From Dehalococcoidia bacterium (lineage in GTDB: Bacteria > Chloroflexota > Dehalococcoidia > Lucifugimonadales > SHYF01): a stretch of DNA of 44,605 nucleotides. Positions within the stretch are counted from its first letter, which is position 1, and each line of letters starts with the position of its first letter. The DNA is taken from assembly GCA_030651175.1 (NCBI GenBank), contig JAUSCR010000029.1:1-44605 (forward strand), in the 5' to 3' direction. This document shows, piece by piece, positions 4,177-35,806 of the stretch. The translations under genes were made by a program, and so were the position numbers. The notes under the pieces were generated by a model that saw nothing but the letters and a program-made list of their open reading frames with translations, was not told the DNA's origin and ran no database searches.

Positions 4177-4313
4177 GCTGAAACAGAGGAGTCCAGAGGG
4201 GCGAAGCCCCTTTGGCAGGGGTCTGGGGGTGTCCCCCAGATATCCCTTTCACCCCCTTCCTGGCCAGGAAGGGGGCAGGGGGATGGTCGAGGAAGTTATC
4301 ATCACCCTGATAG
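4177..4313 (+). repeat. Family-A three-hairpin composite repeat, copy 1
   Basis: Head GCTGAAACAGAGGAGTCC; H1 AGGGGCGAAGCCCCT; H2 CTGGGGGTGTCCCCCAG; H3 CCCCCTTCCTGGCCAGGAAGGGGG; tail GGGGATGGTCGAGGAAGTTATCATCACCCTGA. Begins 6 nt after the nuoF-like stop. Confidence 0.9.
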
Positions 4314-7225
4314 ACCAGGAACCTCCTACGAGGGTAAACGTGACTACCGACAACCGCATAACAATAACCGTTGACGGCCAGCAGGTCCAGGCAAAGCCCG
4401 GCGCTATGGCGTTGGAGGCGGCCATGGAGGCGGGCATCTACGTTCCGTACCTCTGCTACCACACAGGCATGAAGCCATTTGCCGCCTGCCGCATGTGTGT
4501 TGTGCAGGAGGAGGTGGAGGTAGAGGTGGAGCGCGACGGCCAGAAGGTCAAGGAGAAGCAGCTCAGGCCGCCCACGGCCTCGTGCACATTGCCTGTCAGA
4601 CCTGGCCTGGTAATCAGGACAGCTACAGACTCCCTGCGCCAGTTGCAACGAGGCATTCTGGAGATGCTCATCTCGGAGCACCCCCACGGATGCCTTACCT
4701 GCCACCGCATAGAGCTTTGCGGGCCGGAGGACATCTGCCTGCGCCACGTCTCGGTAAATGACCGGTGTGTCATCTGCCCCAAGAACGAGCGGTGCGAACT
4801 GAAGGACACCGTCCGTTTCTTTGGCATGGAGTTGGAGTCGCCCCTCTCCTACAAGACCCGCGCCCTGCCCGTGGAAGAGGCCGACCCCTTCTACGACCGC
4901 GACTACAACCTGTGCATCGTCTGTGGCCGCTGCGTCCGAGTCTGCGAGGAGGTCCGCGGCGACAGCGCCATCACATTCATCGAACGGGCTGGGCAGTCGC
5001 TGGTGGGCACCTCCCGTGGCACATCCCTTTTGGAGTCGGGGTGCGAGTTCTGTGGCGCCTGCCTTGATGTATGCCCTGTGGGAGCCCTGGTGGAGCGCGA
5101 GAATAAGTGGGACAAGGCGGTGCGCGTGGAGCGCACGGTTTGTCCACACTGCCCCGTGGGTTGCCAGCTAAACCTGGAGGTAAACAAGCGGGAGAAGGTG
5201 ATACGGGCCATCCCGGAGATCAACGCCCCAGCCAACCGGGGCCAGGCCTGCTTCAAGGGGAAGTTCGGACTGGAGTACGTGAACCATGAAGACAGACTCA
5301 GGCACCCCCTCATCCGGCGCAACGGTCAGCTAGAGGCCGCCACCTGGGACGAAGCGCTATCACTCATTGCCGAGACGCTGCCCAGATACAAGGGCAGTGC
5401 CTTCGCAGCCATCGCCTCGGCCCGCAGCACCAACGAGACAGCCTATCTGTTGCAGAAGTTCGCGCGCACTGTGATGGACAGCAACAGCGTGGACGTGGAG
5501 TCCAACATCATTCCAGCCGCGAGCCGGGCGCTGGCGGAGCCTCTTGGCTACGCAGCCTCCACCAATCCCATCTGGGATTTGGAAGGAGCCAAGTGTATCC
5601 TGGCCGTGGACACCAACACCACGGAGGAGCACAACGTGGTTGGTGTACCCATCAAGCGCGCCACCAAGAAGGGCGCCAGGCTCATCGTGATAGATGCCCG
5701 CGAGGTGGAGCTGACGCGGTACGCGCATCTGTGGCTGCGCCCGCGTCCCGGCGCCACACTGACGCTCCTGGGCGGCATCCTACGATGCATACTGGAGCAG
5801 GGCCTGGCGGATCAGGCGTTCCTCCAAGAGCAGTGCGACGGCCTGGAGGGGCTGCGCGCCTCCCTGGAACCGTTCACCTTGCAGCACGTGGCCCAGGTCA
5901 CTGGCGTGCCGGAGCAGCAACTCCTGCAGGCGGCGGGTGTGTACGCCACTTCCGGTGCCTCGGCCATCCTGTACGCCCTGGACAACGTCCCCGCCGAGGC
6001 GCAGGCCGCCCAGGTACATGCTCTGGCTAACCTGGCGCTGGTTACAGGCAACGTGGGCAAACCCTCCACCGGGCTGTACGCCCTCCCTCGCGGCGCTAAC
6101 GGGCGGGGTGCCATGGACGTGGGCTGCGTGCCTGACATGCTGCCTGGATACCAGCGGCTGGATCACGAGCCTGTGCGTCAGAGGTTTGCCCAGAGTTGGG
6201 GATCCCAGCTATCGGAGCAGCCCGGCTTGGGCATTGCCGCAGCCCTTCATGCCGCCAGCGAAGGCTCCGTTAATGCGATGCTTCTGCTGGGCGATAGCGT
6301 CAGCACTACCCTCGGAGACCTGGACCAAGGGTATGAGGCCCTGGAGCGCCTGGAGTTTCTGGTGGTGCAGGACACGTTCCTGGGGCCGGCGGCCCAGCGC
6401 GCCCATGTGGTGCTGCCCGCCACCACATTCGCCGAGGAGGACGGAACCTACACCAACCTGGAACGGCGGGTGCAGCTTCTAAAGAAGGCCACATCTCCCA
6501 AGAACACCGAGGCCGAGTCCGGCTGGCAATTCCTTTGCCGGCTGGCCCGGCGCATGGGCGCCCAGGGATTTGGCTTCCAGAGCACGGCTGAGGTGTTCGA
6601 TGAAATCGCCTCCCTGGCGCCCATCTACGGCGGCATATCCCATCGCAGGCTGTTGAAAGAGGCGACCATTACACTGAGGCCCGATCCAGTCAATCCCCAG
6701 CCCACGCAGCTTCTGCACTCAGACAGGGTCTCGCGTGGCATCCAATGGCCCTGCCCGGATGCCAGTGCCCCAGGGACGCCCGTGCTGTACAGCGATGGTT
6801 TCCCAATGGGGCGCGCCAGGCTGATGCCTCTTTCGGCACCCCCAGCGGCATCTCGGCCGACCACGGAGTTTCCACTTCTCTTTGTCCCAGGCCGCGTGCT
6901 GCTCCAGGGGGAGCGCGACTCCGGCGTGGCGCGTGTTGGCGGTGTGAACCTGGTTGCGAGACAGGAGCTGGTGGAGATACATCCCCTGGATATGGCGGAG
7001 GCTGGTATACAGGATGGCGACGTGGTGGACGTGGTATTGCCAACCGGGCAGCGAATATCTGGTATGGCGTCTCTTTCCCAAAGAGCACACAGGGGCGTCG
7101 TATCTATGACCACACTCTTCGGCGAGCTGGCCACCCGCCTCCAGGCCAGCGAAGCCCCTGACCCCATGGCCCGGGTGCCCGGCCTTACAATCAGCGCGGC
7201 GCGCCTGGAGAAGGTGGCGAGGTAA
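4283..7225 (+). CDS. NuoG/FdhA-like molybdopterin-oxidoreductase-family subunit: N-terminal 2Fe-2S and 4Fe-4S domains plus an MopB-like domain that lacks the catalytic Cys/Sec
   Basis: Contains CYHTGMKPFAACRMC (2Fe-2S), HPHGCLTCH, CIVCGRCVRVC and CEFCGACLDVCP (Fe-S) and VCPHCPVGCQLN (MopB Fe-S). Collinear with FdhF through ...TNETAYLLQKFAR... and PRGANGRGAMDVG. The start is uncertain. The ATG at 4283 lies inside repeat A1. A GTG at 4340 preceded by GAGGG gives MTTDNRITITVDGQ, a typical N-terminus. The 4229 start in the ORF track is repeat read-through. Confidence 0.8.
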   Translation: MVEEVIITLIDQEPPTRVNVTTDNRITITVDGQQVQAKPGAMALEAAMEAGIYVPYLCYHTGMKPFAACRMCVVQEEVEVEVERDGQKVKEKQLRPPTASCTLPVRPGLVIRTATDSLRQLQRGILEMLISEHPHGCLTCHRIELCGPEDICLRHVSVNDRCVICPKNERCELKDTVRFFGMELESPLSYKTRALPVEEADPFYDRDYNLCIVCGRCVRVCEEVRGDSAITFIERAGQSLVGTSRGTSLLESGCEFCGACLDVCPVGALVERENKWDKAVRVERTVCPHCPVGCQLNLEVNKREKVIRAIPEINAPANRGQACFKGKFGLEYVNHEDRLRHPLIRRNGQLEAATWDEALSLIAETLPRYKGSAFAAIASARSTNETAYLLQKFARTVMDSNSVDVESNIIPAASRALAEPLGYAASTNPIWDLEGAKCILAVDTNTTEEHNVVGVPIKRATKKGARLIVIDAREVELTRYAHLWLRPRPGATLTLLGGILRCILEQGLADQAFLQEQCDGLEGLRASLEPFTLQHVAQVTGVPEQQLLQAAGVYATSGASAILYALDNVPAEAQAAQVHALANLALVTGNVGKPSTGLYALPRGANGRGAMDVGCVPDMLPGYQRLDHEPVRQRFAQSWGSQLSEQPGLGIAAALHAASEGSVNAMLLLGDSVSTTLGDLDQGYEALERLEFLVVQDTFLGPAAQRAHVVLPATTFAEEDGTYTNLERRVQLLKKATSPKNTEAESGWQFLCRLARRMGAQGFGFQSTAEVFDEIASLAPIYGGISHRRLLKEATITLRPDPVNPQPTQLLHSDRVSRGIQWPCPDASAPGTPVLYSDGFPMGRARLMPLSAPPAASRPTTEFPLLFVPGRVLLQGERDSGVARVGGVNLVARQELVEIHPLDMAEAGIQDGDVVDVVLPTGQRISGMASLSQRAHRGVVSMTTLFGELATRLQASEAPDPMARVPGLTISAARLEKVAR

Positions 7226-7229
7226 TTCC

Positions 7230-7952: not shown

Positions 7953-7955
7953 GAG

Positions 7956-8690
7956 ATGCCTGAACCACCTACCATCTTGGAACTCATACGCAACGGCACC
8001 ATGAGCGCCGAGATGGCGGCTACTTTGTGGGCCGCCGTGGACCAGCGCCTCTCCTTCGTCACGGTGGCTATACCGCGCCTGGCCGGCAAAACCACTACGA
8101 CTAACGCCATCCTGTCGCTCCTGCCGCCTGATGTGCCTGTCCACCGCCTGAGCGGAGACGAGGCGGAGATGGCCCGCCTGAAGAAGGCGGCCACGGGTGG
8201 ATACCTGGTGGTTGGCGAGTTCGCCCAGGCGCCGATACCCACATACATCTGGGGCGCGCCCGTGCGCCGTGTCTTCGACACCCTGACAGCTGGCTACTCC
8301 CTGGCGGTAGCCCTTCACGCCCGCAGCCTTCAGGAGACATTCGATGCCATCTGCCTGGGCAACGGCGTCACCGACGAGCAGGCGTCGCGCATCGGCATGA
8401 TGCTCTACATTCGCCGTTTCGGTGAGGATCCATCCAGCTTCTGGCGCCGCCTCTCAGAGGTGCATGAGATAGACCGGGTGCAAGCTGGACGACCCGCGGG
8501 CCGGCTGCTTCACCGGTGGGTGGAGAAAGACGACCGCTTCGAGTTGGTGGATGCGCCCAGGAAGGTGAGCGCCAGCCCTGCGGAGTTGGCCGCTCGGACG
8601 GCCCGCCTGAAGGACATGGTGGAGGCGCGACGCACCTCTGCTGCGAACGTGGCTAGCATGGTGGCTGAGTACCACCGGATGTCATTCTGA
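7956..8690 (+). CDS. Stand-alone PilT/VirB11-like (type II/IV secretion NTPase family) ATPase core with a degenerate Walker A
   Basis: 244 aa. ELIRNGTMSAEMAATLWAAVDQRLSFVTVAIPRLAGKTTTTNAILSLLPP resembles the P-loop region of secretion ATPases. YLVVGEF resembles Walker B and AVALHARS the His box. The last codons and the stop lie in a repeat module (GTCATTCTGAGCGCAGCGAAGAATC). Confidence 0.5.
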   Translation: MPEPPTILELIRNGTMSAEMAATLWAAVDQRLSFVTVAIPRLAGKTTTTNAILSLLPPDVPVHRLSGDEAEMARLKKAATGGYLVVGEFAQAPIPTYIWGAPVRRVFDTLTAGYSLAVALHARSLQETFDAICLGNGVTDEQASRIGMMLYIRRFGEDPSSFWRRLSEVHEIDRVQAGRPAGRLLHRWVEKDDRFELVDAPRKVSASPAELAARTARLKDMVEARRTSAANVASMVAEYHRMSF

Positions 8691-8731
8691 GCGCAGCGAA
8701 GAATCTAAAGCGTTAGGATTGACCTCGGCAG

Positions 8732-8847
8732 GCTGCCGAAAAAGAGGAGTGCAGAGGGGCGAAGCCCCTTTGCTGGGGGTCTGGGGGTATCCCCCAGATT
8801 TGTTTTCTACCCCCTTCCTGGTAGGAAGGGGGCCAGGGGTATGGTAG
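8732..8847 (+). repeat. Family-A composite repeat, copy 2
   Basis: GCTGCCGAAAAAGAGGAGTGCAGAGGGGCGAAGCCCCTTTGCTGGGGGTCTGGGGGTATCCCCCAGAT...CCCCCTTCCTGGTAGGAAGGGGG...GGTATGGTAG. Confidence 0.9.
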
Positions 8848-8860
8848 CACCGACGTGCCG

Positions 8861-9010
8861 GAGTTCAGGGCGAGCGGATTTGTTTACTCCCGCTCGTGGT
8901 GAGCTTGTCGAACCACGTGAGCGGCCTAATAATCCCGCTCACCCTGAGCCTGTCGAAGGAAATGAGCGGTCCGTTCTCATGTCACCCTGAGCGCAGCGAA
9001 GGGTCTAAGG
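8861..9010. repeat. Cluster of family-B hairpin modules
   Basis: CCCGCTCGTGGTGAGCTTGTCGAACCACGTGAGCGG, then TAATAATCCCGCTCACCCTGAGCCTGTCGAAGGAAATGAGCGG, then GTCACCCTGAGCGCAGCGAAGGGTCTAAGG. The last is a direct repeat of the 8682-8712 module. Confidence 0.8.
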
Positions 9011-9106
9011 CATCACGCCAGTCACTGGGGTCTGTCTTAGATGCTTCGGTTGTCCCGATGTATCGGGACTCCCTCAGCATGACAGCCGTTACATTGAGCG
9101 GGGCCG

Positions 9107-12145: not shown

Positions 12146-12158
12146 GGACGCCCTAACA

Positions 12159-12368
12159 GCCTGCTGAGAAAGGGGAGTCCAGGGGGGCGAAGCCCCCTTG
12201 GCGGGGGAACTGGGGGTGTCCCCCAGGCTCAATTTCACCCCCTTCCTGGCCAGAGCTCCGACTTTGTCGAGAGTTCCGATAAATCGAGAATGCTCGACGG
12301 TAGTCGGACCTGTCCTGAGTATGGCGAAGGAAAGGGGGACAGGGGGATGGTCGAAAGAGTTGGTGTGC
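12159..12368 (+). repeat. Family-A composite repeat, copy 3, with a nested about 75-nt insertion inside hairpin H3
   Basis: Head, H1 and H2 are intact. H3 is split: CCCCCTTCCTGGCCAG [AGCTCCGACTTTGTCGAGAG...CCTGTCCTGAGTATGGCGAAG] GAAAGGGGG. Followed by the tail GGGGATGGTCGAAAGAGTT. Confidence 0.85.
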
Positions 12369-12433
12369 AACCCATCGCTACCTTGCCGGCAGCAGCGAGC
12401 TACTTATCCGAGGCCGCTGCTTCCGTGCCAGGG

Positions 12434-13470: not shown

Positions 13471-14313
13471 TTGGCATTGAACTCCGATAAAGCAGAGCTA
13501 ACTATTATCAGCGATGGGAATATCAAGCTTGACGGCGGAGCGATGTTTGGCCAGGTGCCTAAAGTCTTGTGGGAGCAGAAAACGCTGCCCGACCGGAGGA
13601 ATAGGATATCCCTGGGGCTGAACTGCCTTCTAATCAGGAACGGCGGTCATTGTACCCTGGTAGACACTGGAGTAGGCAGCAAGGAACCCGATAAGATAAA
13701 AGACCGGTATGGCCTGGGCAGCAGCCAGTTGGCCAAGGAGCTCCGGAACCGGGGACTGACTCCCAAAGATATTACCGGGGTCATTTTGACCCACCTCCAC
13801 TTCGACCATGCCGGAGGCAGCACCCGTCTGGACCGTGCCGGTGAGGCGGTGCCCACTTTCCCCGCCGCCAAATACTATATCCAAAAAGCCGATTGGGAGG
13901 AGGCTATTTCTCCCAACGAACGGTCCAAGGGGTCCTACCACAGCGACGATTTCCTGCCCCTGGAAGAGCGAGGGCAACTGATTCTGCTGGAGGGTGACTC
14001 GGAGGTTGCCCCAGGCGTGCACGTGAGGGTCACAGGCGGTCACTCCCAAGGCCACCAGATGGTGTTGGTGAACTACGGGGGTGAGCGGGTAGCCTTCATG
14101 GGCGACCTGGTTCCAACGCCCCATCACCTCCGGTTGCCGTATGTTACCTCCTATGACCGGTTTCCTGAAGACACGCTGGAGAAAAAACGAGCCTTGCTAG
14201 AGGAGGCCGAAAGGTGCGGATGGCTTATCGTTTTTTGTCACGGCTCCAAAGAGCGTGCCGGATACATTGAACGACGGAACGGTGCGCTGAGCTTTCGTCC
14301 AGTAGAGCTATAG
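13471..14313 (+). CDS. MBL-fold metallo-hydrolase
   Basis: 280 aa with THLHFDHAGG (the HxHxDH motif) and downstream His/Asp ligands (GGHSQGH, FMGDLV). TTG start preceded by GGGGAGG. Confidence 0.8.
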   Translation: MALNSDKAELTIISDGNIKLDGGAMFGQVPKVLWEQKTLPDRRNRISLGLNCLLIRNGGHCTLVDTGVGSKEPDKIKDRYGLGSSQLAKELRNRGLTPKDITGVILTHLHFDHAGGSTRLDRAGEAVPTFPAAKYYIQKADWEEAISPNERSKGSYHSDDFLPLEERGQLILLEGDSEVAPGVHVRVTGGHSQGHQMVLVNYGGERVAFMGDLVPTPHHLRLPYVTSYDRFPEDTLEKKRALLEEAERCGWLIVFCHGSKERAGYIERRNGALSFRPVEL

Positions 14314-14468
14314 GCTGCTGAAAAAGGAAAGTCCAGAGGGGCGAAGCCCCTTTGGTGGGGGACTGGGGGTATCCCCCAGATATGCTTTTCACCCCCTTCC
14401 TGGCCAGGAAGGGGGTCATGGGGATGGTCGAAGGAGTTTTTCATCACCCTGATAAGCTGCTGAGCAGG
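14314..14468 (+). repeat. Family-A composite repeat, copy 4 (most complete copy)
   Basis: GCTGCTGAAAAAGGAAAGTCCAGAGGGGCGAAGCCCCTTTGGTGGGGGACTGGGGGTATCCCCCAGATATGCTTTTCACCCCCTTCCTGGCCAGGAAGGGGGTCATGGGGATGGTCGAAGGAGTTTTTCATCACCCTGATAAGCTGCTGAGCAGG. It fills the entire gap between the convergent MBL and mtaB genes. Confidence 0.9.
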
Positions 14469-14469
14469 A

Positions 14470-15870
14470 TCATCCAGGGGGACCACGTCGAGCGGGTCCT
14501 TCTAGTAGAGCACACTGCTGGGGCGCAACCCCGCTCCTGAAAGGATGGATTACTCTTCCCCAGACTACCTCTCTCTCCTGATGCTCCATCACCACGGGAG
14601 TGATGCGGTTGTGCAGAGGCTCTGTTGACCACGTGGCCACTCGCACATAGCTGTCAGTGAGGCCCGCCCACACCTGGTCGCCCGCCACCGAACGACTGGT
14701 TTCCCACAAAACCGGGCATATGGTGCCCATGAGCGTTTGCCGGTAGCGGCGAGCTTGCCCCCTCGCCTGAGCTAGCATTACGTCCATCCTGTGCCGCTTT
14801 TCTGGTTCTGCCACATTCAGGCTTAGGTGCGCCGCGGAGGTGCCGGGGCGCTGCGAGTATGGGAAGGCGTTTAGCCCCGAAAACTCCACATTCCGGCACA
14901 GGTCATGGGTCTCCTGGAACTGTTGCGCTGTCTCTCCAGGAAAGCCCACAATAATATCGGTGGTGATGGCGGCCCGGGCCACCCGCTGCCGGATACTTTC
15001 CGCCGCCTGAACGTACTGCCTGGGCGAGTAGCGCCGGTGCATGGCCTTCAGCACCTCCGCGGAGCCGCTCTGGAGGGGCAGGTGAAAATGCGGGCATAGC
15101 CTAGGGTTTTCCCACAGCGCCAGCAGCTCATCGCTTATCTCCTGGGGCTGTAGAGATGAGACCCGCAGCCGTGGCACTGATGTCTTCTCCAAGAGCCGCC
15201 GGATAAGGCCTGTCAAGGATGCGCCAGGGAGATCGAATCCGTAGGTACCGAGTTGCGTCCCTGTAAGCACCACCTCCTGGTAGCCTTCGGCTGCGAGACG
15301 CTGTATCTGGGCTACCAAAGCATCCGGGTGCAGGCTTCTCTCCCTGCCCCGCACCTTGGGCACTATGCAATAGGCGCAGACCTGGTTGCACCCCTCTTGT
15401 ATCTTCACCGTGGCACGCGTGTGCCCCGGAGCCGGGGCCTGTTCATGCAAAATGGTGTCTGTGGAGCGAGGCCCACTAGCAATAATCCCGCTCATCCTGA
15501 GCCTGTCGAAGGAGATGAGCGGGGCTAGGCCCACAAGCCTGTTCACCTGCTCTAAGAGATTATCCTTCTGGGTGTTGCCCAGCACCAGTCCAACCCCTTC
15601 CACCTGGGCCAGTCGCTCTGGCGCTCGCTGGGCGTAGCAGCCCGTGGCCACCAACAGCGCGCCTGGATTGGCGCGGTGCACGGCGCTCAGGGCACGGCGA
15701 GCCTTGCGGTCGGCCACGTGGGTCACCGTGCAGGTGTTGACCACGCATACGTCCGCCTGGGCTGGGTCATCCACCATCCGATACCCTGCCTCCGCAAAAC
15801 GTCGCGCCAGGGCCTGGGAGTCTGCCTGGTTGAGCTTGCAGCCGTGGGTCTCTATGTAAACGAGTGTCAT
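14470..15870 (-). CDS. mtaB: tRNA (N6-threonylcarbamoyl-A37) methylthiotransferase MtaB (radical SAM MTTase)
   Basis: N-terminal MTTase domain (TLVYIETHGCKLNQ...VVNTCTVT), radical-SAM CNQVCAYCIVP and a TRAM-like C-terminus. The preferred start, ATG 15870, forms an ATGA overlap with the upstream kinase stop. The ORF track starts at 15888. Confidence 0.85.
   Translation of the reverse strand: MTLVYIETHGCKLNQADSQALARRFAEAGYRMVDDPAQADVCVVNTCTVTHVADRKARRALSAVHRANPGALLVATGCYAQRAPERLAQVEGVGLVLGNTQKDNLLEQVNRLVGLAPLISFDRLRMSGIIASGPRSTDTILHEQAPAPGHTRATVKIQEGCNQVCAYCIVPKVRGRERSLHPDALVAQIQRLAAEGYQEVVLTGTQLGTYGFDLPGASLTGLIRRLLEKTSVPRLRVSSLQPQEISDELLALWENPRLCPHFHLPLQSGSAEVLKAMHRRYSPRQYVQAAESIRQRVARAAITTDIIVGFPGETAQQFQETHDLCRNVEFSGLNAFPYSQRPGTSAAHLSLNVAEPEKRHRMDVMLAQARGQARRYRQTLMGTICPVLWETSRSVAGDQVWAGLTDSYVRVATWSTEPLHNRITPVVMEHQEREVVWGRVIHPFRSGVAPQQCALLEGPARRGPPG
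15481..15524. repeat. Family-B hairpin module located inside the mtaB coding sequence, in frame
   Basis: AATAATCCCGCTCATCCTGAGCCTGTCGAAGGAGATGAGCGGGG matches the intergenic copy TAATAATCCCGCTCACCCTGAGCCTGTCGAAGGAAATGAGCGG at 8930-8972 with about 2 mismatches. Confidence 0.8.
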
Positions 15871-16523
15871 CGTCCTTGCCGTGTCCACCGCTGTATCTCC
15901 CTGGCCACCTTTGCTACCACTGGCTCAATGTCGCCAGAGGTATCCACCGATATATGGTCACGTTTAATTGGTTCCTGGAGCGGGCGCATCCGCTGGTACA
16001 CGCCCCAATCGGCATCGGAATGGTCCTGGCGCAAAGGCGTTTTGCCTCGTACATCCAGGCGCTGGCGGACTACCTGGGGCGGCGCTTCCACAAGCACCAA
16101 CATCATTTTGGCATTGTGCCGCTCCGCCAGCCGGTACAGTGGCTCGCGGTGGGCCTCGGCCAGGCTGGTGGCATCCAGCAGCACAGATAGTCGTTGTCCC
16201 AGCAGGAGGTCAATGACCTCATGGATTGCCTGGAACAACCTGGCGCTCTCCTTTGCGGTATGGATGGGAGATGGCGTCAGGACTTTTCGCATGGCATCGC
16301 TCTCCAGCACCGTCAGGGGCGCTTGCTGGGCCAGGCGCTGGCTGAAGTAACTTTTGCCCGTACCAGGCAGCCCGCTGACCACTACCAGCACGGTTTGAAG
16401 CATAGGCTCCGGCAGCAAGCCGTCTAAGCTTCGCAGAAGCCGCCGAGCGTCGCGGGACGCGGCTGTAGCGGCCTGCCCTTCATGGGTGGAGCGGGTATTG
16501 TGGAATCGGTTCATAGATGCCAA
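15867..16523 (-). CDS. P-loop kinase/ATPase (AAA_33 / zeta-toxin-like predicted kinase)
   Basis: 218 aa with Walker A VVSGLPGTGKSYF and an acidic LLDAT segment. Translationally coupled to mtaB. Confidence 0.6.
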   Translation of the reverse strand: MASMNRFHNTRSTHEGQAATAASRDARRLLRSLDGLLPEPMLQTVLVVVSGLPGTGKSYFSQRLAQQAPLTVLESDAMRKVLTPSPIHTAKESARLFQAIHEVIDLLLGQRLSVLLDATSLAEAHREPLYRLAERHNAKMMLVLVEAPPQVVRQRLDVRGKTPLRQDHSDADWGVYQRMRPLQEPIKRDHISVDTSGDIEPVVAKVAREIQRWTRQGR

Positions 16524-16585
16524 GCTAGTTCAAGTGTGGAGTCAATTATAGAGCATAGCCCATCCGCCTCCAAACTGGTCAGACG

Positions 16586-16614
16586 TTGAAGGTCACTACT
16601 GCATAGCCTATAAT
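16586..16614 (+). promoter_or_regulatory. Candidate sigma70-type promoter of aspS
   Basis: TTGAAG (16586-16591), 17-nt spacer, TATAAT (16609-16614), 28 nt upstream of the GTG start. Confidence 0.55.
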
Positions 16615-16642
16615 CGAAAGACGTTATGGAGGTAACAATCCT

Positions 16643-18436: not shown

Positions 18437-18488
18437 CAGAAACAGGTTATGGTTGCTTGGCAGGAATGTCCAGTCCTCCGACTAGGTG

Positions 18489-18633
18489 GCTGCTGAGAAA
18501 TGGGAGTCCAGATGGGCGAAGCCCCGGAGCTCCGACAGGTCGAGAGTCTCGACGAAGTCGGACCTGCCCTGAACGAAGTGAAGGGGTGGGGGTCTGGGGG
18601 ATGGTCGTAGATGTTTTTCGTCACCCTGACAGG
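18489..18633 (+). repeat. Family-A composite repeat, copy 5 (rearranged: extra modules inserted after H1; H3 missing)
   Basis: GCTGCTGAGAAATGGGAGTCCAGATGGGCGAAGCCCC, then [GGAGCTCCGACAGGTCGAGAGTCTCGACGAAGTCGGACCTGCCCTGAACGAAGTGAAGG], then GGTGGGGGTCTGGGGGATGGTCGTAGATGTTTTTCGTCACCCTGA. Confidence 0.8.
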
Positions 18634-20733: not shown

Positions 20734-20861
20734 CTAGAGGGTGGTTTCAAGAATCGCCTTACGCACGGGTGGGGAACATGCTAACAGCGAGAGCCTGGCC
20801 TGATTACACCGAAGGAGTTCATGTCTGGCGTCTAAGGGGGTATTCTGGCTTTGCACAAGAA

Positions 20862-20997
20862 TCCAGGAGGATACAAGGAACCAAGGTTCCTTGTCGGGGG
20901 TTTGGGGGTGTCCCCCAAGAACCTCTTCTTCCCCCCTCTCCCTTGCCAAGGGAGAGAGGGGGACTGAGGGGGTAAGGGTTGGGGGGTGGGGTAGCAC
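20862..20997 (+). repeat. Family-A composite repeat, copy 6 (variant subfamily with different H1 and H3 stems)
   Basis: H1' CAAGGAACCAAGGTTCCTTG; H2 TTGGGGGTGTCCCCCAA; H3' CCCCTCTCCCTTGCCAAGGGAGAGAGGGG. Module order and spacing match the canonical copies. Confidence 0.75.
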
Positions 20998-22415: not shown

Positions 22416-22453
22416 AGAGGAAGGCCCCTGGAAATTTCCAGGGGCCTTCCTCT
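22416..22453. terminator. Strong GC-rich hairpin; bidirectional terminator candidate between clpX (+) and the tRNA (-)
   Basis: AGAGGAAGGCCCCTGG AAATTT CCAGGGGCCTTCCTCT: a 16-bp perfect stem flanked by an A-run on the 5' side. Confidence 0.7.
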
Positions 22454-22462: not shown

Positions 22463-22537
22463 TGGTAGCGGGGGCAGGACTCGAACCTGCGACCTTCGGG
22501 TTATGAGCCCGACGAGCTGCCACTGCTCCACCCCGCG
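22463..22537 (-). tRNA. Initiator tRNA-fMet (anticodon CAT), CCA encoded
   Basis: The reverse complement CGCGGGGTGGAGCAGTGGCAGCTCGTCGGGCTCATAACCCGAAGGTCGCAGGTTCGAGTCCTGCCCCCGCTACCA is 75 nt. It has an unpaired 1:72 position (C-U) and three consecutive G:C pairs closing the anticodon stem. It is nearly identical in the 5' half to E. coli tRNA-fMet. Confidence 0.9.
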
Positions 22538-22548: not shown

Positions 22549-22670
22549 GCCCTCATCCCCCTGCCCTCTTCTCCATGCGGAGAAGGGAGAGAGAACGGAT
22601 CTGGGGGATACCCCCAGACCCCCACCAGAATCCCGACCAGTCGGGACTCTGGACTCCCCCAGGGAGGAGG
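22549..22670 (-). repeat. Family-A composite repeat, copy 7 (reverse orientation, variant stems)
   Basis: The plus strand reads H3'' CCCTCTTCTCCATGCGGAGAAGGGA, H2 CTGGGGGATACCCCCAG, H1'' AGAATCCCGACCAGTCGGGACTCT, then GGACTCCC (reverse complement of the head GGGAGTCC). Lies between the 23S trailer and the tRNA-fMet. Confidence 0.75.
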
Positions 22671-22728: not shown

Positions 22729-25746
<3,018 letters not shown>

Positions 25747-26154: not shown

Positions 26155-26706
26155 ATGACCTCTCAGCAAGCAATCCTCAGTCCCGCAGCGATGATCCAAG
26201 AGTTCAAGAAGAACGGCGTCACCCACGTGGTATGCCTGCCCGACAGCGAAACCAACTATCTGTACGAGATGATGGAGGCCGATCCTAGCCTGGACATTGT
26301 GCCTGTGGCCCGGGAGGGCGAGACTATGGCCATAGCCGCTGGCCTCCTCGTGGGAGGCAAGCTTCCCGTCTGCCTCATCCAGAACACCGGCATGCTTGAG
26401 TCCGGCGACTCCATACGGGGGCTGGCGCTGGACCTAAACCTTCCTATGGTGCTAATAATCGGCTACCGAGGCTGGACTCGCCACGGTGTCACCCCTGACT
26501 CTGCGGCACGCTTCACGGAGCCATTCTTGCAGGCTTTGAACATAAACTACTACCTGGTGGAAACCGACGAAGATGCGCCTCGCATCTCCACCGCCTTCCA
26601 GGAAGCCAAGGCCAACAACCGCCCAGTGGCAGTGCTCATAGGCGATGAGTACCACGGGTTTAACCGGCCAACTGAGTGGCCGGCTAGACCCAAAGGAAGA
26701 GGCTAG
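26155..26706 (+). CDS. Sulfopyruvate/phosphonopyruvate decarboxylase alpha-subunit-like protein (TPP enzyme N-terminal pyrimidine-binding domain)
   Basis: 183 aa. GVTHVVCLPDSETNYLYE...VPVAREGETMAIAAGLLVGGKLPVCLIQNTGMLESGD is typical of ComD / Ppd N-terminal halves. AGGAGG RBS. Confidence 0.75.
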   Translation: MTSQQAILSPAAMIQEFKKNGVTHVVCLPDSETNYLYEMMEADPSLDIVPVAREGETMAIAAGLLVGGKLPVCLIQNTGMLESGDSIRGLALDLNLPMVLIIGYRGWTRHGVTPDSAARFTEPFLQALNINYYLVETDEDAPRISTAFQEAKANNRPVAVLIGDEYHGFNRPTEWPARPKGRG

Positions 26707-26841
26707 CCCAATCGCACACCCGTAGAAAAAGTTTTGTCGCTCCAGGCGGGAGGTGGAAGCGACAGGAGGAGCGGGCCTACACGTAGTATTACCCTTTGCC
26801 ACCACCAAGCGGATAGCGTCAAGTCAAGAGGAGGTTGAACC

Positions 26842-27423
26842 ATGATAAACCAGCGAGACATGATGGCAGTCCTGAACAAGCACCGCGGCAATGCCGTAGT
26901 GATCCCTACCATGAGCGCCGGCGCAGCGTGGCTGGATTCTAGCCACCTACCGGCACGTGATGTAGCCATTAGCGGAGCCATGGGAAAGGCCTCCTCTTTC
27001 GCCTTGGGAGTGGCCTTGTCCAGGCCCGACCTCAAGGTCATCATAATGGACGGCGATGGCAGCCTGGAAATGAACCTGGGATCCATGGCCACCATTGCTG
27101 GGAAGCATCCTGAGAACTTCTACCATTTCGTCCTGGAGAACGGCGTGTACGCCATTACTGGGGGCCAGCCTATTCCTGCCTCAGGCACAATTTCCTTCTC
27201 TAAGATAGCCCTGGGTGCGGGATACGCTGCGGCCTACGAGTTCGACGAGTTGGAGGATTTCAGCCTGCGCATCGGGGACATCCTGAAGCAGAAAGGCCCC
27301 GTCTTCGTGACCGTCAAGGTCGTGCCAGAAATCCAGAACGAGCCCATAGGTCGCAGGCCCAGGGGCACTGGCCGCACCATCCAAGTGGCCATGCGCGATC
27401 TGCATGAGTCCCTGAAATCGTGA
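26842..27423 (+). CDS. Sulfopyruvate/phosphonopyruvate decarboxylase beta-subunit-like protein, copy 1 (TPP diphosphate-binding domain)
   Basis: 193 aa with GAMGKASSFALGVAL...VIIMDGDGSLEMNLGSMATIA (the GDG-x(24-27)-N TPP motif region). GAGGAGG RBS. Confidence 0.75.
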   Translation: MINQRDMMAVLNKHRGNAVVIPTMSAGAAWLDSSHLPARDVAISGAMGKASSFALGVALSRPDLKVIIMDGDGSLEMNLGSMATIAGKHPENFYHFVLENGVYAITGGQPIPASGTISFSKIALGAGYAAAYEFDELEDFSLRIGDILKQKGPVFVTVKVVPEIQNEPIGRRPRGTGRTIQVAMRDLHESLKS

Positions 27424-27474
27424 TACCCAGCCCCATAGGTTCGCCGCCAGAGATTTCCGAATCGCCTCTTGCAG

Positions 27475-27658
27475 GTTGCGGAAAAGGGAAGTCCAGAGGG
27501 GCGAAGCCCCGGAGCCTGCCCTGAGCAAAGCCGAATGGGTGGGGGTCCGGGGGTATCCCCCAGATATAACTTTTGCCCCCTTCCTGGCCAGGCCTGTCCT
27601 GAGTAGGCCGAAGGAACTGGGCCAGGGGGATGGTCGAAAGAGTTCTTCATCACCCTGC
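27475..27658 (+). repeat. Family-A composite repeat, copy 8 (with two extra CCTG(Y)CCTGAG...GCCGAAGG modules)
   Basis: Head and H1, then [GGAGCCTGCCCTGAGCAAAGCCGAATGGG], H2 CCGGGGGTATCCCCCAG, H3 left arm CCCCCTTCCTGGCCAGG, [CCTGTCCTGAGTAGGCCGAAGG], then the tail GGGGGATGGTCGAAAGAGTTCTTCATCACCCTG. Confidence 0.85.
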
Positions 27659-27669
27659 TAAGGATAACT

Positions 27670-28233
27670 ATGATTCCATCGCTGGAAGCAGTCAAAGCCA
27701 TTCATGCCCACCGCCAGAAGGCCCTGGTGGTGGCCACCATGACCGCCCGCGAGGAGTGGGACGCCATTTCCCAGGACCGCTCGCTGGACTTCCCGCTGTT
27801 TGGCTGCATGGGCAAGGCCTCCTCCTTTGGACTGGGCCTTGCGCTGGCGCAGCCAAAGCGGAAGGTGCTGGTGATAGACGGCGACGGCAGCCTGCTGATG
27901 AACCTGGGTTCGCTGGCAACGGTGGCCAACAAAGCGCCGGCCAACTACTACCACTTTGTCTTTGAAGACGGCGTATACACCACCACGGGTGGCCAGCCCA
28001 TACCGGCGGCAGGCAAGGTATCCTTTGCCGGCATGGCCCGGGCCGCTGGGTACGCCGCAGCCTACGAGTTCGATAATCTAGAGGAACTGGTGACCGAGGT
28101 AGGACGCATCCTTCAGCAACAAGGCCCCGTGTTGGTCTGCCTGAAGGTGCGCCACGGGGAGATACCCAAGTCTGCGCCTCGCACCATCCAGCAAGCGGTC
28201 AAGGAGCTGCGAGATCTGCTGGCGAGAGCGTGA
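27670..28233 (+). CDS. Sulfopyruvate/phosphonopyruvate decarboxylase beta-subunit-like protein, copy 2 (tandem paralogue)
   Basis: 187 aa with GCMGKASSFGLGLAL...VLVIDGDGSLLMNLGSLATVA...GYAAAYEF. Roughly half the residues are identical to the 26842-27423 product over the full length. Confidence 0.75.
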   Translation: MIPSLEAVKAIHAHRQKALVVATMTAREEWDAISQDRSLDFPLFGCMGKASSFGLGLALAQPKRKVLVIDGDGSLLMNLGSLATVANKAPANYYHFVFEDGVYTTTGGQPIPAAGKVSFAGMARAAGYAAAYEFDNLEELVTEVGRILQQQGPVLVCLKVRHGEIPKSAPRTIQQAVKELRDLLARA

Positions 28234-28364: not shown

Positions 28365-29348
28365 CTAAAACCCCGGCGGCGTGTCCACCGGCGTCACCCA
28401 ACCCTCCAACCGCTGTCCACGGCGCAGCGCGGCAAACTGCAAATCCTTGCCAACGCTTCCGCCCGTCAGCAGCCGGTGAACATGGTCTATGGTGGGAGTC
28501 GGCTGGCCATCAAGCTGGATGAGGAGGTCGCCCTGCTGGATGCCCGCCTTCTCCGCTGGACCGCCCGACGCCACGGCGGAGATGAGAACACCGCTCTGCT
28601 GGCCGTCCACTCCTCCGCCTAGCTGCCCCTGCCCGTTGGCGGGTTGCAAGCGCATCGTCTGGGCGGCGATGCCCAGGTATCCGCGAGAGACATGTCCCTG
28701 CTTCATGAGGGCTGTGCTCACCCACTTGGCCGTGTTGATGGGCACGGAGAAACATATCCCCTGAGCGTGCTGGATTACGGCTGTGTTCATGCCTATGACA
28801 TGGCCCAGGGTGTTGACCAGTGGCCCGCCGCTGCTGCCGGGGTTCAACGCCGCATCCGTCTGGATAATGTTGTCTATCAGCCGCCCTGTCTGGCTGCGCA
28901 GGGACCTTCCCAGGGCGCTCACAACGCCCGCCGTGACTGTGGCCTGAAGTCCGAACGGATTGCCGATGGCTATTACAAGCTCGCCGACCCGCAGGGCGTC
29001 GGAGTCCCCCAGATCAAGCATTGGAAGGCCCGACGCGCCCACCCGCAACACAGCGATGTCGGTATCAGGGTCGTCGCCCACCACCTCGGCCCCGTAGGTA
29101 GCGCCGTTGGGAAAGGCCACATCCAGATGGGGCATCCCGTGAGCAACGTGGCTGTTAGTCAAGACGAAGCCATCGGGAGCAATGACGAAGCCGGAAGCGG
29201 AGCCCTGGAGCTGCCAGGGTTCATGGCCACGACGGCGCGGAGGCTCCTGGCGCTGAAAGTTGATGCTCACCACCCCCGCCCCCACCCGCTCCACCAGGTC
29301 GGCCAGCGCCTGCGAGTAGGCCCGTAGAACCTCTCTTCCTTCCTGCAT
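28365..29348 (-). CDS. HtrA/DegP-family trypsin-like serine protease with a C-terminal PDZ domain
   Basis: Catalytic triad contexts TNSHVAHG, DTDIAVLRV and NPGSSGGPLVN. PDZ segment GVLISAVASGGPAEKAGIQQGDLLIQLDG. ATG 29348 (CAGGAGTA RBS) is preferred over 29444. Confidence 0.85.
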   Translation of the reverse strand: MQEGREVLRAYSQALADLVERVGAGVVSINFQRQEPPRRRGHEPWQLQGSASGFVIAPDGFVLTNSHVAHGMPHLDVAFPNGATYGAEVVGDDPDTDIAVLRVGASGLPMLDLGDSDALRVGELVIAIGNPFGLQATVTAGVVSALGRSLRSQTGRLIDNIIQTDAALNPGSSGGPLVNTLGHVIGMNTAVIQHAQGICFSVPINTAKWVSTALMKQGHVSRGYLGIAAQTMRLQPANGQGQLGGGVDGQQSGVLISAVASGGPAEKAGIQQGDLLIQLDGQPTPTIDHVHRLLTGGSVGKDLQFAALRRGQRLEGWVTPVDTPPGF

Positions 29349-29440
29349 GCGGTACTCCTGGCAGGTTGCTGAACCCCGACACGTCGTGGCGACTATCCCC
29401 TGTGCCAGTTCCTGGGGGCTTGTCCCAAAAGAGCTTGACC

Positions 29441-29553
29441 TCACCCCCTGTGTCCCCCTCTCCGCGTCGGAGAGGGGGAGTTTTGAATCTGGGGGATACC
29501 CCCAGACCCCCAGAGGGAACCGAGGTTCCCTGCACCCTCCTGACTTTTCAGGC
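29441..29553 (-). repeat. Family-A composite repeat, copy 9 (reverse orientation, variant stems)
   Basis: The plus strand reads H3' CCCCCTCTCCGCGTCGGAGAGGGGG, H2 CTGGGGGATACCCCCAG, H1' GAGGGAACCGAGGTTCCCTG. Begins 8 nt downstream of the jag stop. Confidence 0.75.
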
Positions 29554-29561
29554 GGCTCCGC

Positions 29562-30206
29562 CTACCGCTGTCCCTTGCCCAGCCTTACGGTTATCTTCCT
29601 GCCCTGGCCCTCGCCGGTGCTCTCAGTGGTAACGTAAGGGTGATTGGCCAGAGCCATGTGAATTATCCTTCGTTCTGACGCCGACATAGGCTCCAACGTG
29701 ACAGACCGGCCGCTGGACACCACCCGCTCGGCTACGCGGCTGGCCAGGGTCTGGAGGGCCTGGCTGCGTCGTTCCTTGTATTGCTCCACGTCTATGATCA
29801 CGGGGAGATGTCCCCGGCTCTTCTGATTGAGGACCAGATTTACCAGGAACTGGAACGCATTGAGCGTTTCACCCCGCTTGCCTATAAGCAGGCCGGAGTC
29901 CTCGCCATCAATGTCAATGGTGGGCCCGATCTCTGCGTCGCCAGAGGAACGGACGGTAGCCACGGCGGACACTTCAAGGTGCGAAAGCACAGTGTTGACC
30001 GCTTCTATGGCCTGAGAGGCCAGACTTTCGGTAGGCGAGAGCCGAGTTACCCGGACCCTGGCATCCTCACCACCTATGCCAAAGAAGCCCGGGCGGCCCT
30101 GGCTAACTACCTCGATGGCGACTTCCGCGCGTTCGGCGTCGAGCTCCTTTAGGGCGAGTTCGACGGCTTCCTCTAGTGTCTTGGCGCTCATCTCTACTTT
30201 GTCCAT
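29562..30206 (-). CDS. jag: Jag/KhpB-type RNA-binding protein (Jag_N, KH and R3H domains)
   Basis: 214 aa with an R3H region, LEPMSASERRIIHMALANHPYVTTESTGEG. Position immediately after yidC is conserved. GAGGAGA RBS 9 nt upstream of ATG 30206. Confidence 0.85.
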   Translation of the reverse strand: MDKVEMSAKTLEEAVELALKELDAERAEVAIEVVSQGRPGFFGIGGEDARVRVTRLSPTESLASQAIEAVNTVLSHLEVSAVATVRSSGDAEIGPTIDIDGEDSGLLIGKRGETLNAFQFLVNLVLNQKSRGHLPVIIDVEQYKERRSQALQTLASRVAERVVSSGRSVTLEPMSASERRIIHMALANHPYVTTESTGEGQGRKITVRLGKGQR

Positions 30207-32137: not shown

Positions 32138-32219
32138 TTACACCTGCGTACAAAATGGGATTGCCTTACAAACCGGCCATCCCCATGTTCTTTCTAGCAA
32201 TGACGCTCCAGGAAACTCT

Positions 32220-32915: not shown

Positions 32916-33053
32916 CTATACCGTCAGCCGGTGCCGACCCTTAAAGCGCCTTCGGTGCAGCACCTCACGCCCTCCTGCGGTCTGCATTCGGGAGCGAAAG
33001 CCGTGCACGCGTGCTCGATGGCGTCTGTGGGGTTGGTAGGTTCGCTTAGGCAT
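32916..33053 (-). CDS. rpmH: 50S ribosomal protein L34
   Basis: Hand-translated 45-aa ORF, absent from the ORF track because it is under 60 aa: [45 protein letters not shown]. It has the classic L34 pattern and the classic position upstream of rnpA. Confidence 0.9.
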
Positions 33054-33077
33054 CTACGTAACTTGTCCAGTGCAGCC

Positions 33078-33106
33078 ATTATACGTAGCCGCCTTCGGAG
33101 TGTCAA
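33078..33106 (-). promoter_or_regulatory. Perfect-consensus sigma70 promoter of the rpmH-rnpA-yidD operon
   Basis: The minus strand reads TTGACA (33106-33101), 17-nt spacer, TATAAT (33083-33078), 24 nt upstream of the rpmH ATG. Confidence 0.7.
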
Positions 33107-33231
33107 ACGGGCCATCATCCCAGTTTGGGCAGGTTATATGGACACCTGAGCGACAGTAGCGCCAAGAGGGCGTTAGAGGTAACATCTTGTGCAAAGCTGG
33201 TTGGAACCAGAAGCCATCCTAGGTAAGTGCC

Positions 33232-33966
33232 ATGCCACGCCCAGACAAAAAAGCGAGAATTGACCTGCTGCTGGTGGAACGCGGCCAGGCGGAGAGCCAG
33301 CAGCGGGCCCAGGCTCTCTTAATGGCTGGACAGGTCACGGTGGACGGCCGCCTGGTGGATAAGGCAGGTGCCCTGGTCAGCCGAGGCGCCAAAGTGGAAG
33401 TGGAGATGCCGCCGCTCTACGTAGGCCGGGGCGGCATCAAGCTAGCCCACGCTCTTCAGACGTTCGCCTTGAAGGTGGAAGGGGCGACAGCGTTAGACGT
33501 AGGATCCTCCACGGGCGGCTTCACCGATTGCCTCCTTCAGCACGGCGCTTCCCGTGTCTACGCATTGGACGTGGGCTATGGCCAACTCGACCTGCGTCTG
33601 CGGCAGGACCTCAGAGTCGTAGTGAAGGAGCGGGTGAACGCCCGATACTCATTTGAACTGCCTGAGATGGTAGACCTGGCCACTGTGGACGTCTCCTTCA
33701 TCTCGCTGGCCAAGGTGTTGCCTTCGGTGGCGGAACACGTGAAGAGCGGCGGGCACATGATAGTTTTGGCGAAGCCCCAATTCGAGGCGCAACGCCGCCA
33801 GGTGGGCAAAGGGGGCGTGGTGCGCGACCCCGCCATCCATGCGGATGTGTTGGCGCGGCTGATTGTGTGGGCCACGCACCACCGTTTCAGGCTGCGGGGA
33901 TTGACGCCCTCGCCCTTGCTGGGAGACGCAGGCAACCGGGAGTTCTTCTTGCTGCTGGAGACATAG
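33232..33966 (+). CDS. tlyA: TlyA-family rRNA (cytidine-2'-O)-methyltransferase (S4 and FtsJ-like domains)
   Basis: 244 aa. S4 domain RIDLLLVERGQAESQQRAQALLMAGQVTVDGRLVDKAG. SAM motif ALDVGSSTGGFTDCLLQHGA. C-terminal GNREFFLL. Confidence 0.9.
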   Translation: MPRPDKKARIDLLLVERGQAESQQRAQALLMAGQVTVDGRLVDKAGALVSRGAKVEVEMPPLYVGRGGIKLAHALQTFALKVEGATALDVGSSTGGFTDCLLQHGASRVYALDVGYGQLDLRLRQDLRVVVKERVNARYSFELPEMVDLATVDVSFISLAKVLPSVAEHVKSGGHMIVLAKPQFEAQRRQVGKGGVVRDPAIHADVLARLIVWATHHRFRLRGLTPSPLLGDAGNREFFLLLET

Positions 33967-33972
33967 CAGGGC

Positions 33973-34106
33973 GATGAACAACTCCCTCGACCATCCCCCT
34001 GGCCCCCTTCCTGGCCAGGAAGGGGGGTGAGAAGTATATCTGGGAGATACCCCCAGTCCCCCACCAAAGGGGCTTCGCCCCTCTGGACTCCGATTTTTGA
34101 GCAGCC
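33973..34106 (-). repeat. Family-A composite repeat, copy 10 (reverse orientation, canonical stems)
   Basis: The plus strand reads the reverse complement of the tail (CCTCGACCATCCCC), H3 CCCCCTTCCTGGCCAGGAAGGGGGG, H2 CTGGGAGATACCCCCAG, H1 AGGGGCTTCGCCCCT, then GGACTCC and TTTTTGAGCAGCC. This is the only copy opposed to the upstream gene. Confidence 0.9.
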
Positions 34107-34113
34107 GGTTCGT

Positions 34114-34142
34114 TTGACCCTCCATGAATGGCGGGGTATAAT
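34114..34142 (+). promoter_or_regulatory. Near-consensus sigma70-type promoter of purF
   Basis: TTGACC (34114-34119), 17-nt spacer, TATAAT (34137-34142), 28 nt upstream of the TTG start at 34171. Confidence 0.6.
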
Positions 34143-34170
34143 AATCACGCAATTTGCCCGGGGGTGATGT

Positions 34171-35613: not shown

Positions 35614-35660
35614 AAGCTATCTCTTTCCCATGCATGGAGTGCCGCACCATCCTTGAATCA

Positions 35661-35806
35661 GGGTGCAGGGGGCGAAGCCCCCGCTGGGGGTCTGGGGTCC
35701 GATGATGCTCTGCTCATCGAGATGCCGACTCCGTCGAGCGCCGACCTTGTCGAGCGTCCTCGACGGAGTCGGCATCTCGACAAAGCCGGAGGTATCCCCC
35801 AGATCC
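35661..35806 (+). repeat. Family-A composite repeat, copy 11 (H1 plus a split H2 carrying a nested long palindrome; no H3)
   Basis: H1 GGGGGCGAAGCCCCC. H2 left arm TCTGGGGT at 35691-35698 and right arm GGTATCCCCCAGAT at 35790-35803. Between them is a perfect 22-bp inverted repeat, 35717-35738 / 35759-35780. Confidence 0.8.

Follow-up and report, generated by a model that had tools for sequence, protein, structure and literature searches.

The stretch of DNA analysed here (the window) is the entire 44,605-nt NCBI contig JAUSCR010000029.1, from a Dehalococcoidia metagenome-assembled genome (MAG). Its protein-coding genes, identified by Pfam scans of all the main open reading frames (ORFs), include nuoF, aspS, clpP, clpX, jag, tlyA and purF, and the spaces between its genes hold eleven copies of a repeat that a preliminary description of the sequence had designated family A. 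All eleven are present at the positions given there. Compared with dinucleotide-preserving shuffles, the core GGGGNNYYGGGGGTRTCCCCCAR matches nine times in the window with none expected, the head together with the first hairpin (H1) matches seven times with 0.01 expected, and the tail GGGGATGGTCGNAG, with up to two mismatches allowed, matches seven times (six within copies) with 1.9 expected. The preliminary description had proposed a covariance model as a check, and we built one (R1) from three window copies and seven copies from other genomes. Run over the window with filters off, R1 recovers ten of the eleven copies on the strands described (E 6e-37 to 3e-7) and no additional copy. Family A is a real, previously uncatalogued repeat family, and the bias in its orientation is real as well.

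The architecture of the unit is seen most clearly in the canonical full-length type A copy on the plus strand at 14308..14454 (R1 154 bits). A left terminal inverted repeat, CTATAGGCTGCTGAAAAA (14308..14325; consensus TAGCAGGCTGCTGAAAAA), is followed on the same strand by H1, CCAGAGGGGC-GAA-GCCCCTTTGG, with 10 pairs including a G·T wobble (14333..14355); by a run of five guanines (G5) and the second hairpin H2, CTGGGGG-TAT-CCCCCAG, where conservation across the family is highest (14357..14379); by the third hairpin H3, CCCCCTTCCT-GGCC-AGGAAGGGGG (14392..14415); and by the right terminal inverted repeat TTTTTCATCACCCTGATA (14437..14454). H1 is 95% paired and H3 97% paired, and all 10 pairs of each covary. 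The left end of this copy contains the stop codon of a metallo-beta-lactamase gene (14311-14313), and 15 nt downstream comes the end of a convergent radical-SAM gene. Across the window and other genomes, copies without interruptions show 84% mean identity when aligned, over a unit of ~147 nt that reads 5′ to 3′ as the left end TAGCAGGCTGCTGAAAAA, an A/G-rich spacer, H1, the G5 run, H2, an A+T-rich and G-poor linker, H3, a second G5 run carrying GATGGTCGAAAGG, and the right end TTTTTCAnCACCCTGCTA, the inverted repeat of the left. The two ends, TAGCAGGCTGCTGAAAAA...TTTTTCAnCACCCTGCTA, are 18 nt long and match at 17 of 18 bases in the consensus. The family H1 (CCAGAGGGGC-GAA-GCCCCTTTGG), which includes the very stable GCGAAGC motif, and the family H3 (CCCCCTTCCT-GGCC-AGGAAGGGGG) are written as in the canonical copy, and the family H2 is TCTGGGGG-TRT-CCCCCAGA. 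The head and tail that had been recognised earlier are real parts of the element, although they prove to be merely inner portions of the 18-nt ends, and the unit begins 6-9 nt earlier than had been thought, at TAGCAGG.

Three more window copies are, like the canonical one, of type A and free of nested inserts, two of them full-length. The copy at 4168..4312 (plus strand, 143 bits) lies between a nuoF-like gene (2464-4170) and a gene that Pfam identifies as a NuoG/FdhA-type molybdopterin oxidoreductase; it opens with TAG, which serves as the nuoF stop codon, and ATAG flanks it on both sides. The copy at 33964..34111 (minus strand, 139 bits) is opposed to its neighbours tlyA and purF, and its right-end TAG, read on the plus strand, is the tlyA stop codon (33964-33966). 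The copy at 8726..8860 (plus strand, 110 bits) is truncated, its 3′ end missing after GGGGTATGGTAG, and lies amid other small repeats between a 244-aa gene without a Pfam match (plus strand) and a MeaB gene (minus strand). Three further type A copies, all on the plus strand, carry nested small palindromes: that at 12154..12377 (93 bits), between a PEP-mutase-like gene (plus strand) and a DnaJ-domain gene (minus strand), has ~75 nt of nested palindromic repeats within H3; that at 18483..18631 (36.5 bits), located after the aspS stop and before the conserved tig promoter region, has them in place of H2 and H3, and its site is without an element in two related stretches, L117 and L118; and that at 27469..27660 (84 bits), between two TPP_enzyme_C genes, has two extra modules and ends 9 nt before the second gene's start codon. 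Another three copies belong to A', a sister subfamily whose H1, H3 and ends differ from those of A. They lie in the clpP-clpX spacer (20848..20992, plus strand, 55.7 bits), between the 23S rRNA 3′ end and tRNA-fMet (22549..22669, minus strand, A'-like, 65.9 bits) and between jag (29562-30206, minus strand) and an HtrA-like protease gene (28365-29444, minus strand) (29428..29558, minus strand, 53 bits), and the last two are co-oriented with both of their neighbours. The eleventh copy, after purF (35661..35806, plus strand), is a fragment consisting of H1, the G5 run and an H2 whose loop is split by a ~85-nt palindromic repeat; it has no H3, tail or recognisable ends and gives only weak R1 sub-matches. 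The three-hairpin layout ascribed to every copy does not hold for this fragment. All copies are intergenic, as described, with the qualification that three overlap a neighbouring gene by its stop codon (4168-4170, 14311-14313 and 33964-33966). Pfam confirmed most of the gene names first proposed, the exceptions being the gene before 8726, which has no match, the NuoG/FdhA-type gene after 4312, and the ‘comE-like’ gene, which encodes a TPP_enzyme_C protein.

The repeat is widespread in one phylum. In a species-representative genome set, the core pattern finds more than 114 stretches, almost all of them from Chloroflexota, with carriers among the Dehalococcoidia, the Chloroflexia, the Herpetosiphonaceae and the cultured Dictyobacter aurantiacus; the search for a full-length insertion sequence (IS) covered 114 Chloroflexota stretches. 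R1 matches at E <= 1e-6 in the window and in about 40 of the core-matching assemblies make up a set of 110 copies, from at least 40 species-level Chloroflexota genomes. No copy matched an Rfam family, ribozymes and the Chloroflexi-1 motif included, at the gathering score; the only overlaps at E <= 10 are SCARNA20, mir-4433 and mir-4716 in copy 20848-20992, at chance-level E values of 2.4-7.3 and scores that fall far short of gathering, and a known ribozyme or riboswitch is ruled out by this result. [quoted passage not shown] The element is not notably phage-borne: viral contigs give 22 core matches but just 2 weak R1 matches. Core matches in Actinomycetota were rejected as family members: they are lone hairpins, in about the number that chance is estimated to give in high-G+C DNA. 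Streptomyces, Actinomadura and one Actinomycetota MAG contain such lone hairpins, GGGGGTCTGGGGGTGTCCCCCAG (L043, L051, L083, L091, L110, L115), three of them followed by AAAGYACAG or AATGCACAG. There is also a variant that keeps H1-G5-H2 and has H3 and the tail replaced by GGGCGGGYGGGTGGGAA, a canonical G-quadruplex motif (also written GGGCGGGYGGGTGGG), at L005, L016, L017, L020, L025, L035, L071, L072, L076, L078, L087, L109 and L114. Of its 13 copies outside genes, 10 lie upstream of a co-oriented gene and 6 in divergent spacers, and the downstream genes are mutually unrelated.

Comparison with related genomes shows both filled and empty sites. Where NuoF is 90% identical (L142), the nuoF-fdhA spacer is 10 nt long and equals the window flanks minus the element and one ATAG. 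Where ClpX is 75% identical (L117 and L118), the clpP-clpX spacer is an empty 14 nt, and there are zero copies in 42.6 kb. In an 89% relative (L116) this spacer is occupied by another type A copy, whose H3 contains a nested A' copy. L141, also an 89% relative, shows at its nuoF stop codon only a decayed insert and gives zero R1 matches in 21.7 kb. Density therefore ranges from 0 per 42 kb in relatives to 11 copies in the 44.6 kb of the window. Empty, differently occupied and decayed sites of this kind indicate that individual copies are young or short-lived relative to species divergence. At the position of copy 8726-8860 and its surrounding small repeats, L141 carries an IS256-family transposase (16385-17596; PF00872), so this spacer collects insertions. 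The L141 enzyme was discarded as a partner for family A, its ends being unrelated.

A candidate partner came from scanning metagenomes for the left end followed by a non-MITE interior. In seven metagenomic stretches, 1291-1383 bp long, the boundaries are TAGCAGGSTGCTGAAAAA...TTTTTCAGCASCCTGCTA, the same ends as those of family A (the IS5-type end motif is also written CAGGSTGNTGAAAAA), and in all six for which flanking sequence is available the flanks read C|TAG...CTA|G. An intact transposase ORF of ~364 aa was obtained from five of the seven. Two of the transposases were scanned, and both score above the 140-bit cutoff for the IS5-family model NF033581 of NCBIfam, with 269 and 262 bits; one was run against Pfam and gave DUF772 and DDE_Tnp_1. 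Many short elements with the same ends and unrelated interiors are also present in metagenomes, and the contig L216 carries one of them plus a family A copy. Those with the ends TAGCAGGSTGNTGAAAAA, 100-200 nt long, come from soil and sediment metagenomes (L143, L154, L164, L174, L183, L195, L216, L217, L235, L244, L254 and L259). This IS5-type end set, TAGCAGGSTGNTGAAAAA, has thus given rise to several MITE families. In the window and the 114 stretches, every end-like motif belongs to a short copy, and inverted repeats of >=14 nt lying 0.7-2.6 kb apart are only pairs of short copies. Pfam scans of the main ORFs agree with the earlier statement that the window holds neither a transposase gene nor one for a REP-associated tyrosine transposase (RAYT), REP denoting repetitive extragenic palindromes.

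The flanks of type A copies read Y|TAG CAGG...CCTG CTA|R, with TA at both ends of nearly all of them. Identical flanking 4-mers are found in 8 of 77 copies, with 1.4 expected (p < 2e-4), and the eight include the rare pairs ATAG/ATAG, TTAG/TTAG and CTGG/CTGG. These flanks fit a 4-bp NTAN duplication around an element ending in CAGG/CCTG; a 2-bp TA duplication would also be compatible, and the empty site in L142 agrees with either. IS5 inserts at YTAR, duplicating 4 bp. We prefer the IS5/YTAR model over an IS630/TA model because the transposase found is of the IS5 family and because rare 4-mers match at both flanks. For the gene neighbourhoods we called genes with a simple self-trained codon model, which recovers 35 of 36 official calls at two test loci. 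By these calls, 17 of the 70 copies that follow a co-oriented gene overlap its stop codon with their left end (24%), and 6 of the 25 that have a convergent gene at the right end do so there (24%); in the window, 3 of the 4 type A copies without nested inserts share a stop codon. Copies abut or overlap stop codons because the end of the element reads TAG. Together with targeting to TA, this accounts without any function for the position ‘just past a gene end’ noted in the preliminary description.

From the inverted ends, the NTAN flanking repeats, the filled and empty sites, the nesting of copies and the IS5-type elements with the same ends, we conclude that family A is probably an IS5-type MITE of Chloroflexota, mobilised in trans and owing its orientation bias to selection; we put the probability of this reading at about 0.78. 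On the same five observations, the analogy with REPs and bacterial interspersed mosaic elements (BIMEs) first suggested for it does not hold. Family A consists of short (~147 nt), non-coding, dispersed copies with terminal inverted repeats and evidence of mobility, and full-length IS elements with matching ends exist. On this reading, the ~147-bp non-autonomous element would depend for its movement on an IS5-family DDE transposase acting in trans through recognition of the 18-nt inverted ends (TAG)CAGGCTGCTGAAAAA, with insertion and duplication at TA-centred NTAN sites, mostly CTAG or CTAA. In genomes of ~60% G+C such sites would be concentrated at stop codons and in spacers, and since the junction reads TAG in either orientation, a gene would remain intact after an insertion at its stop codon. 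Copies would therefore come to lie at or just after gene ends, often within operons. Insertion itself is probably unoriented, and copies whose G-rich strand is the transcribed sense strand would then persist ~5 times more often between same-strand genes. Persistence of this kind would mean that it is the element's effect in the mRNA that comes under selection. The C-rich antisense form may be harmful, for instance by offering Rho a place to load, by covering ribosome-binding sites or by pairing with the sense copies that other transcripts carry; alternatively, the compact three-hairpin sense form may be harmless or mildly protective.

Several observations weigh against this interpretation. The conserved part of family A is internal, unlike that of most MITE families, and the H1-G5-H2-H3 layout is constant across subfamilies with different ends (A, A' and C), in which the ends, H1 and H3 vary; such internal conservation suggests selection on something beyond transposition. 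Most flanking 4-mer pairs differ at one position. Neither the window nor the 114 Chloroflexota stretches, nor any contig known to be from Chloroflexota, showed an IS with family A ends, and none of the full-length IS5-type elements shares a contig with family A; for this reason we infer an IS5-family partner in this lineage only from the identity of the ends. Structural support also has to be read with care. The terminal helix is 76% paired across the 110 copies, and 88.6% of cells pair in the model-fitted alignment, against 70.5% in shuffles and 47-57% when partners are slid, with 43 of 46 pairs changed on both sides and all four helices contributing, but the alignment was fitted to the structure and the copies are related, so that these figures overstate the independent support.

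The preliminary description had counted 10 of 11 window copies as co-oriented with the gene before them. This overstates the case, as three copies (8726, 12154 and 14308) lie between convergent genes, one of which is co-oriented by necessity. The informative count is 7:1, the seven being at nuoF-fdhA, aspS-tig, clpP-clpX, 23S-tRNA-fMet, TPP-TPP, jag-htrA and purF-next gene, and the one opposed copy that at tlyA-purF (33964-34111), which had been singled out correctly. The claim that orientation follows transcription is borne out in the larger set. Among the 110 copies, those with same-strand neighbours are co-oriented in 49 cases and opposed in 10 (p = 3e-7), or 44 and 9 without the window; convergent spacers hold a further 13, divergent spacers 10 and gene interiors 2. 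The bias is present in each of the larger subfamilies, where the ratios of co-oriented to opposed copies are 10:2 for A, 15:3 for C, 7:1 for A' and 13:5 for the others. Going from 20.8 to 35.7 kb in the window, the copies change orientation four times (within 14 kb), in step with the local gene direction, so the bias tracks transcription and a replication-linked bias is excluded. Given the symmetric ends, the palindromic preferred target and the equal overlap with stop codons at both ends, selection after insertion is the more likely cause, and the bias most likely reflects selection on the transcript. Hairpin covariation and an excess of G·U pairs on the sense strand agree with this.

The conservation of the internal three-hairpin module across subfamilies with different ends and the 5:1 sense bias are the two unusual features of family A, and both suggest that the form of the transcript matters. 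They raise the idea, which we advance tentatively and think rather unlikely, that the selected unit is the internal H1-G5-H2-H3-G5 module and not the transposon ends. The module would then be a phylum-wide structure, in sense-strand RNA or in G-rich non-template DNA, that rides on several IS5-type ends and has been recruited by hosts to process, protect or tune polycistronic mRNAs. The G-quadruplex variant described above bears on this idea.

A different proposal, which we judge unlikely, is that hosts have selected family A primarily as an RNA element for mRNA 3′ ends, either a terminator or an exonuclease-blocking hairpin comparable to REP/BIME, and that it has spread by virtue of this function and not by selfish transposition. 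The 49:10 sense bias would be expected of such an element, as would hairpins maintained by compensatory changes. In H1-H3, read on the G-rich (sense) strand, there are 95 G·U pairs against 35 A·C mismatches, 28 of the G·U pairs coming from one column, and this excess points to the G-rich strand being read as RNA or single-stranded DNA. Both strands fold stably (z-scores -2.2 and -3.9), and H2 hardly varies, with compensatory changes confined to no side of its base pairs alone, even among the 25 ‘bystander’ copies not chosen through the search pattern. Set against this, individual copies are not conserved (relatives with 75-90% protein identity show, at the same sites, no element, another element or a decayed copy), the density runs from 0 per 42 kb to 11 per 45 kb, and an IS5-family element has matching ends. 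A U-tract is absent after every hairpin (a mean of 3.9 T in the 10 nt after H2, with the longest T run mostly 1-3), so a classical terminator role is unsupported; a terminator scan gave only 3 weak calls in copies, at H2. Copies also lie within clpP-clpX, nuoF-fdhA and 23S-tRNA, likely operons in which termination would do harm, and the terminator role put forward earlier is hard to reconcile with these positions. Ten of the 110 copies are in divergent promoter spacers, and a promoter scan found no promoter-like site in any window copy.

The preliminary description had also raised the possibility that the bias arises at insertion. One orientation relative to the gene would then be favoured either by the transposase or by some host factor tied to transcription or replication. 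That the bias is similar across subfamilies, and similar again for copies lying exactly on stop codons (17 co-oriented and 6 opposed), is what such a mechanism would give. Near-identical inverted ends and a palindromic CTAG target, however, leave a DDE transposase without an obvious cue to orientation, the 24% overlap with stop codons is the same at each end, and the four switches of orientation within 14 kb rule out coupling to replication; we think an insertion mechanism very improbable. Spread by a RAYT, an IS200/IS605-like tyrosine transposase acting on single-stranded DNA hairpins, is hardly credible, because the GC-rich hairpins (with GCGAAGC in H1) and the modular mosaic build with nested small palindromes, which recall REP/BIME, are accompanied by no GTAG or CGTC tag beside a 20-40-nt palindrome and by no RAYT gene among the window ORFs, and the element has 18-nt terminal inverted repeats and TA-centred flanking repeats, absent from REPs, and ends equal to those of IS5-family elements.

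Other features of the window adjoin the copies. Palindromic GAGCTCCGAC...GTCGAG...CTCGAC...GTCGGACC repeats are nested in three family A copies (12230-12330, 18525-18580 and 35695-35785), in one case in the H2 loop; they form a small repeat family of their own, with hairpins as its insertion sites. Small repeats of two other families, CCCGCTCAYCCTGAGCCTGTCGAAGGARATGAGCGG and ATGTCAYYCTGAGCGCAGCGAAGRRTCTAARGC, occur at 2282-2323, 8883-8969 and 15481-15522 and at 8679-8711 and 8979-9011, and related ‘CCTGAGCGAAGCCGAAGG’ modules are found within family A copies here and in many other MAGs. On the minus strand between 22416 and 25745, the 23S rRNA gene (22729-25745) is followed by the repeat copy and then by tRNA-fMet (22463-22537); a perfect 17-bp hairpin with a T-run at 22416-22453 has the form of a textbook terminator, and the copy in the rRNA transcript lies upstream of it. 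No 5S rRNA gene was detected anywhere in the window, even at Rfam E <= 10. At 26155-28233 a TPP_enzyme_N gene precedes two tandem TPP_enzyme_C genes of ~190 aa that are separated by a family A copy. Directly after the fragment copy, a PIN-domain gene (36099-36530) and a small overlapping upstream ORF (35825-36139) are probably a toxin-antitoxin pair. A NotI-like restriction endonuclease (PF12183) lies next to a D12 adenine methyltransferase at 37592-39384, with a purM-like gene on one side and purH on the other; the two coincide with a drop in G+C to 0.48 and look like an acquired restriction-modification cassette.

The family A model gives a name to a repeat that litters many Chloroflexota genomes, mostly those of uncultured Dehalococcoidia and Chloroflexia, and whose copies break metagenome assemblies and can seed false ORFs. 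Family A is also an example of how a TA-targeting element can settle on stop codons in a G+C-rich genome without damage to the genes. With a 5:1 sense bias, at least 40 species and symmetric ends, it offers an unusually clean natural data set on structured, G-rich inserts in bacterial transcripts, and the cultured carrier Dictyobacter aurantiacus S27 makes the question of orientation testable.

Among known systems, REPs are single palindromes of 20-40 nt with a GTAG or CGTC tag that depend on a RAYT and are without terminal inverted repeats or target duplications (PMC3733652, PMC2817692). Family A resembles the REP/BIME repeats of enterobacteria and pseudomonads as a high-copy, intergenic, palindromic mosaic repeat in 3′ untranslated and intercistronic regions, and differs in having terminal inverted repeats and in being found without a RAYT gene among the window ORFs. 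The ERIC/IRU elements of enterobacteria, including Yersinia, are 127-bp MITEs that are co-transcribed with flanking genes, form stable RNA folds and have an orientation-dependent effect on the neighbouring mRNA (PMC2229807). Family A is likewise small, non-coding and intergenic, with inverted ends and TA at its termini. The two have no sequence relation, however: family A is G+C-rich, has three separate internal hairpins in place of one long stem and belongs to Chloroflexota hosts, and its orientation effect is deduced from counts. RUP of Streptococcus pneumoniae and Correia/NEMIS of Neisseria are TA-inserting MITEs assigned by the match of their ends to full-length IS elements, RUP with IS630-Spn1 (PMC2229807). 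In family A, too, the transposase family is assigned through such a match and insertion is at TA, but RUP and Correia/NEMIS are A+T-rich and have IS630-type or unknown transposases, whereas family A matches the IS5 family (NF033581) and its flanks fit a YTAR-like 4-bp duplication. The eukaryotic relatives of IS5, PIF/Harbinger, gave rise to the Tourist MITEs. The 1.3-kb IS5-family elements described here encode a DDE_Tnp_1/DUF772 transposase and share with family A identical 18-nt ends and C|TAG...CTA|G flanks; family A differs from them in being non-coding, with an interior unrelated to that of the IS apart from the ends.

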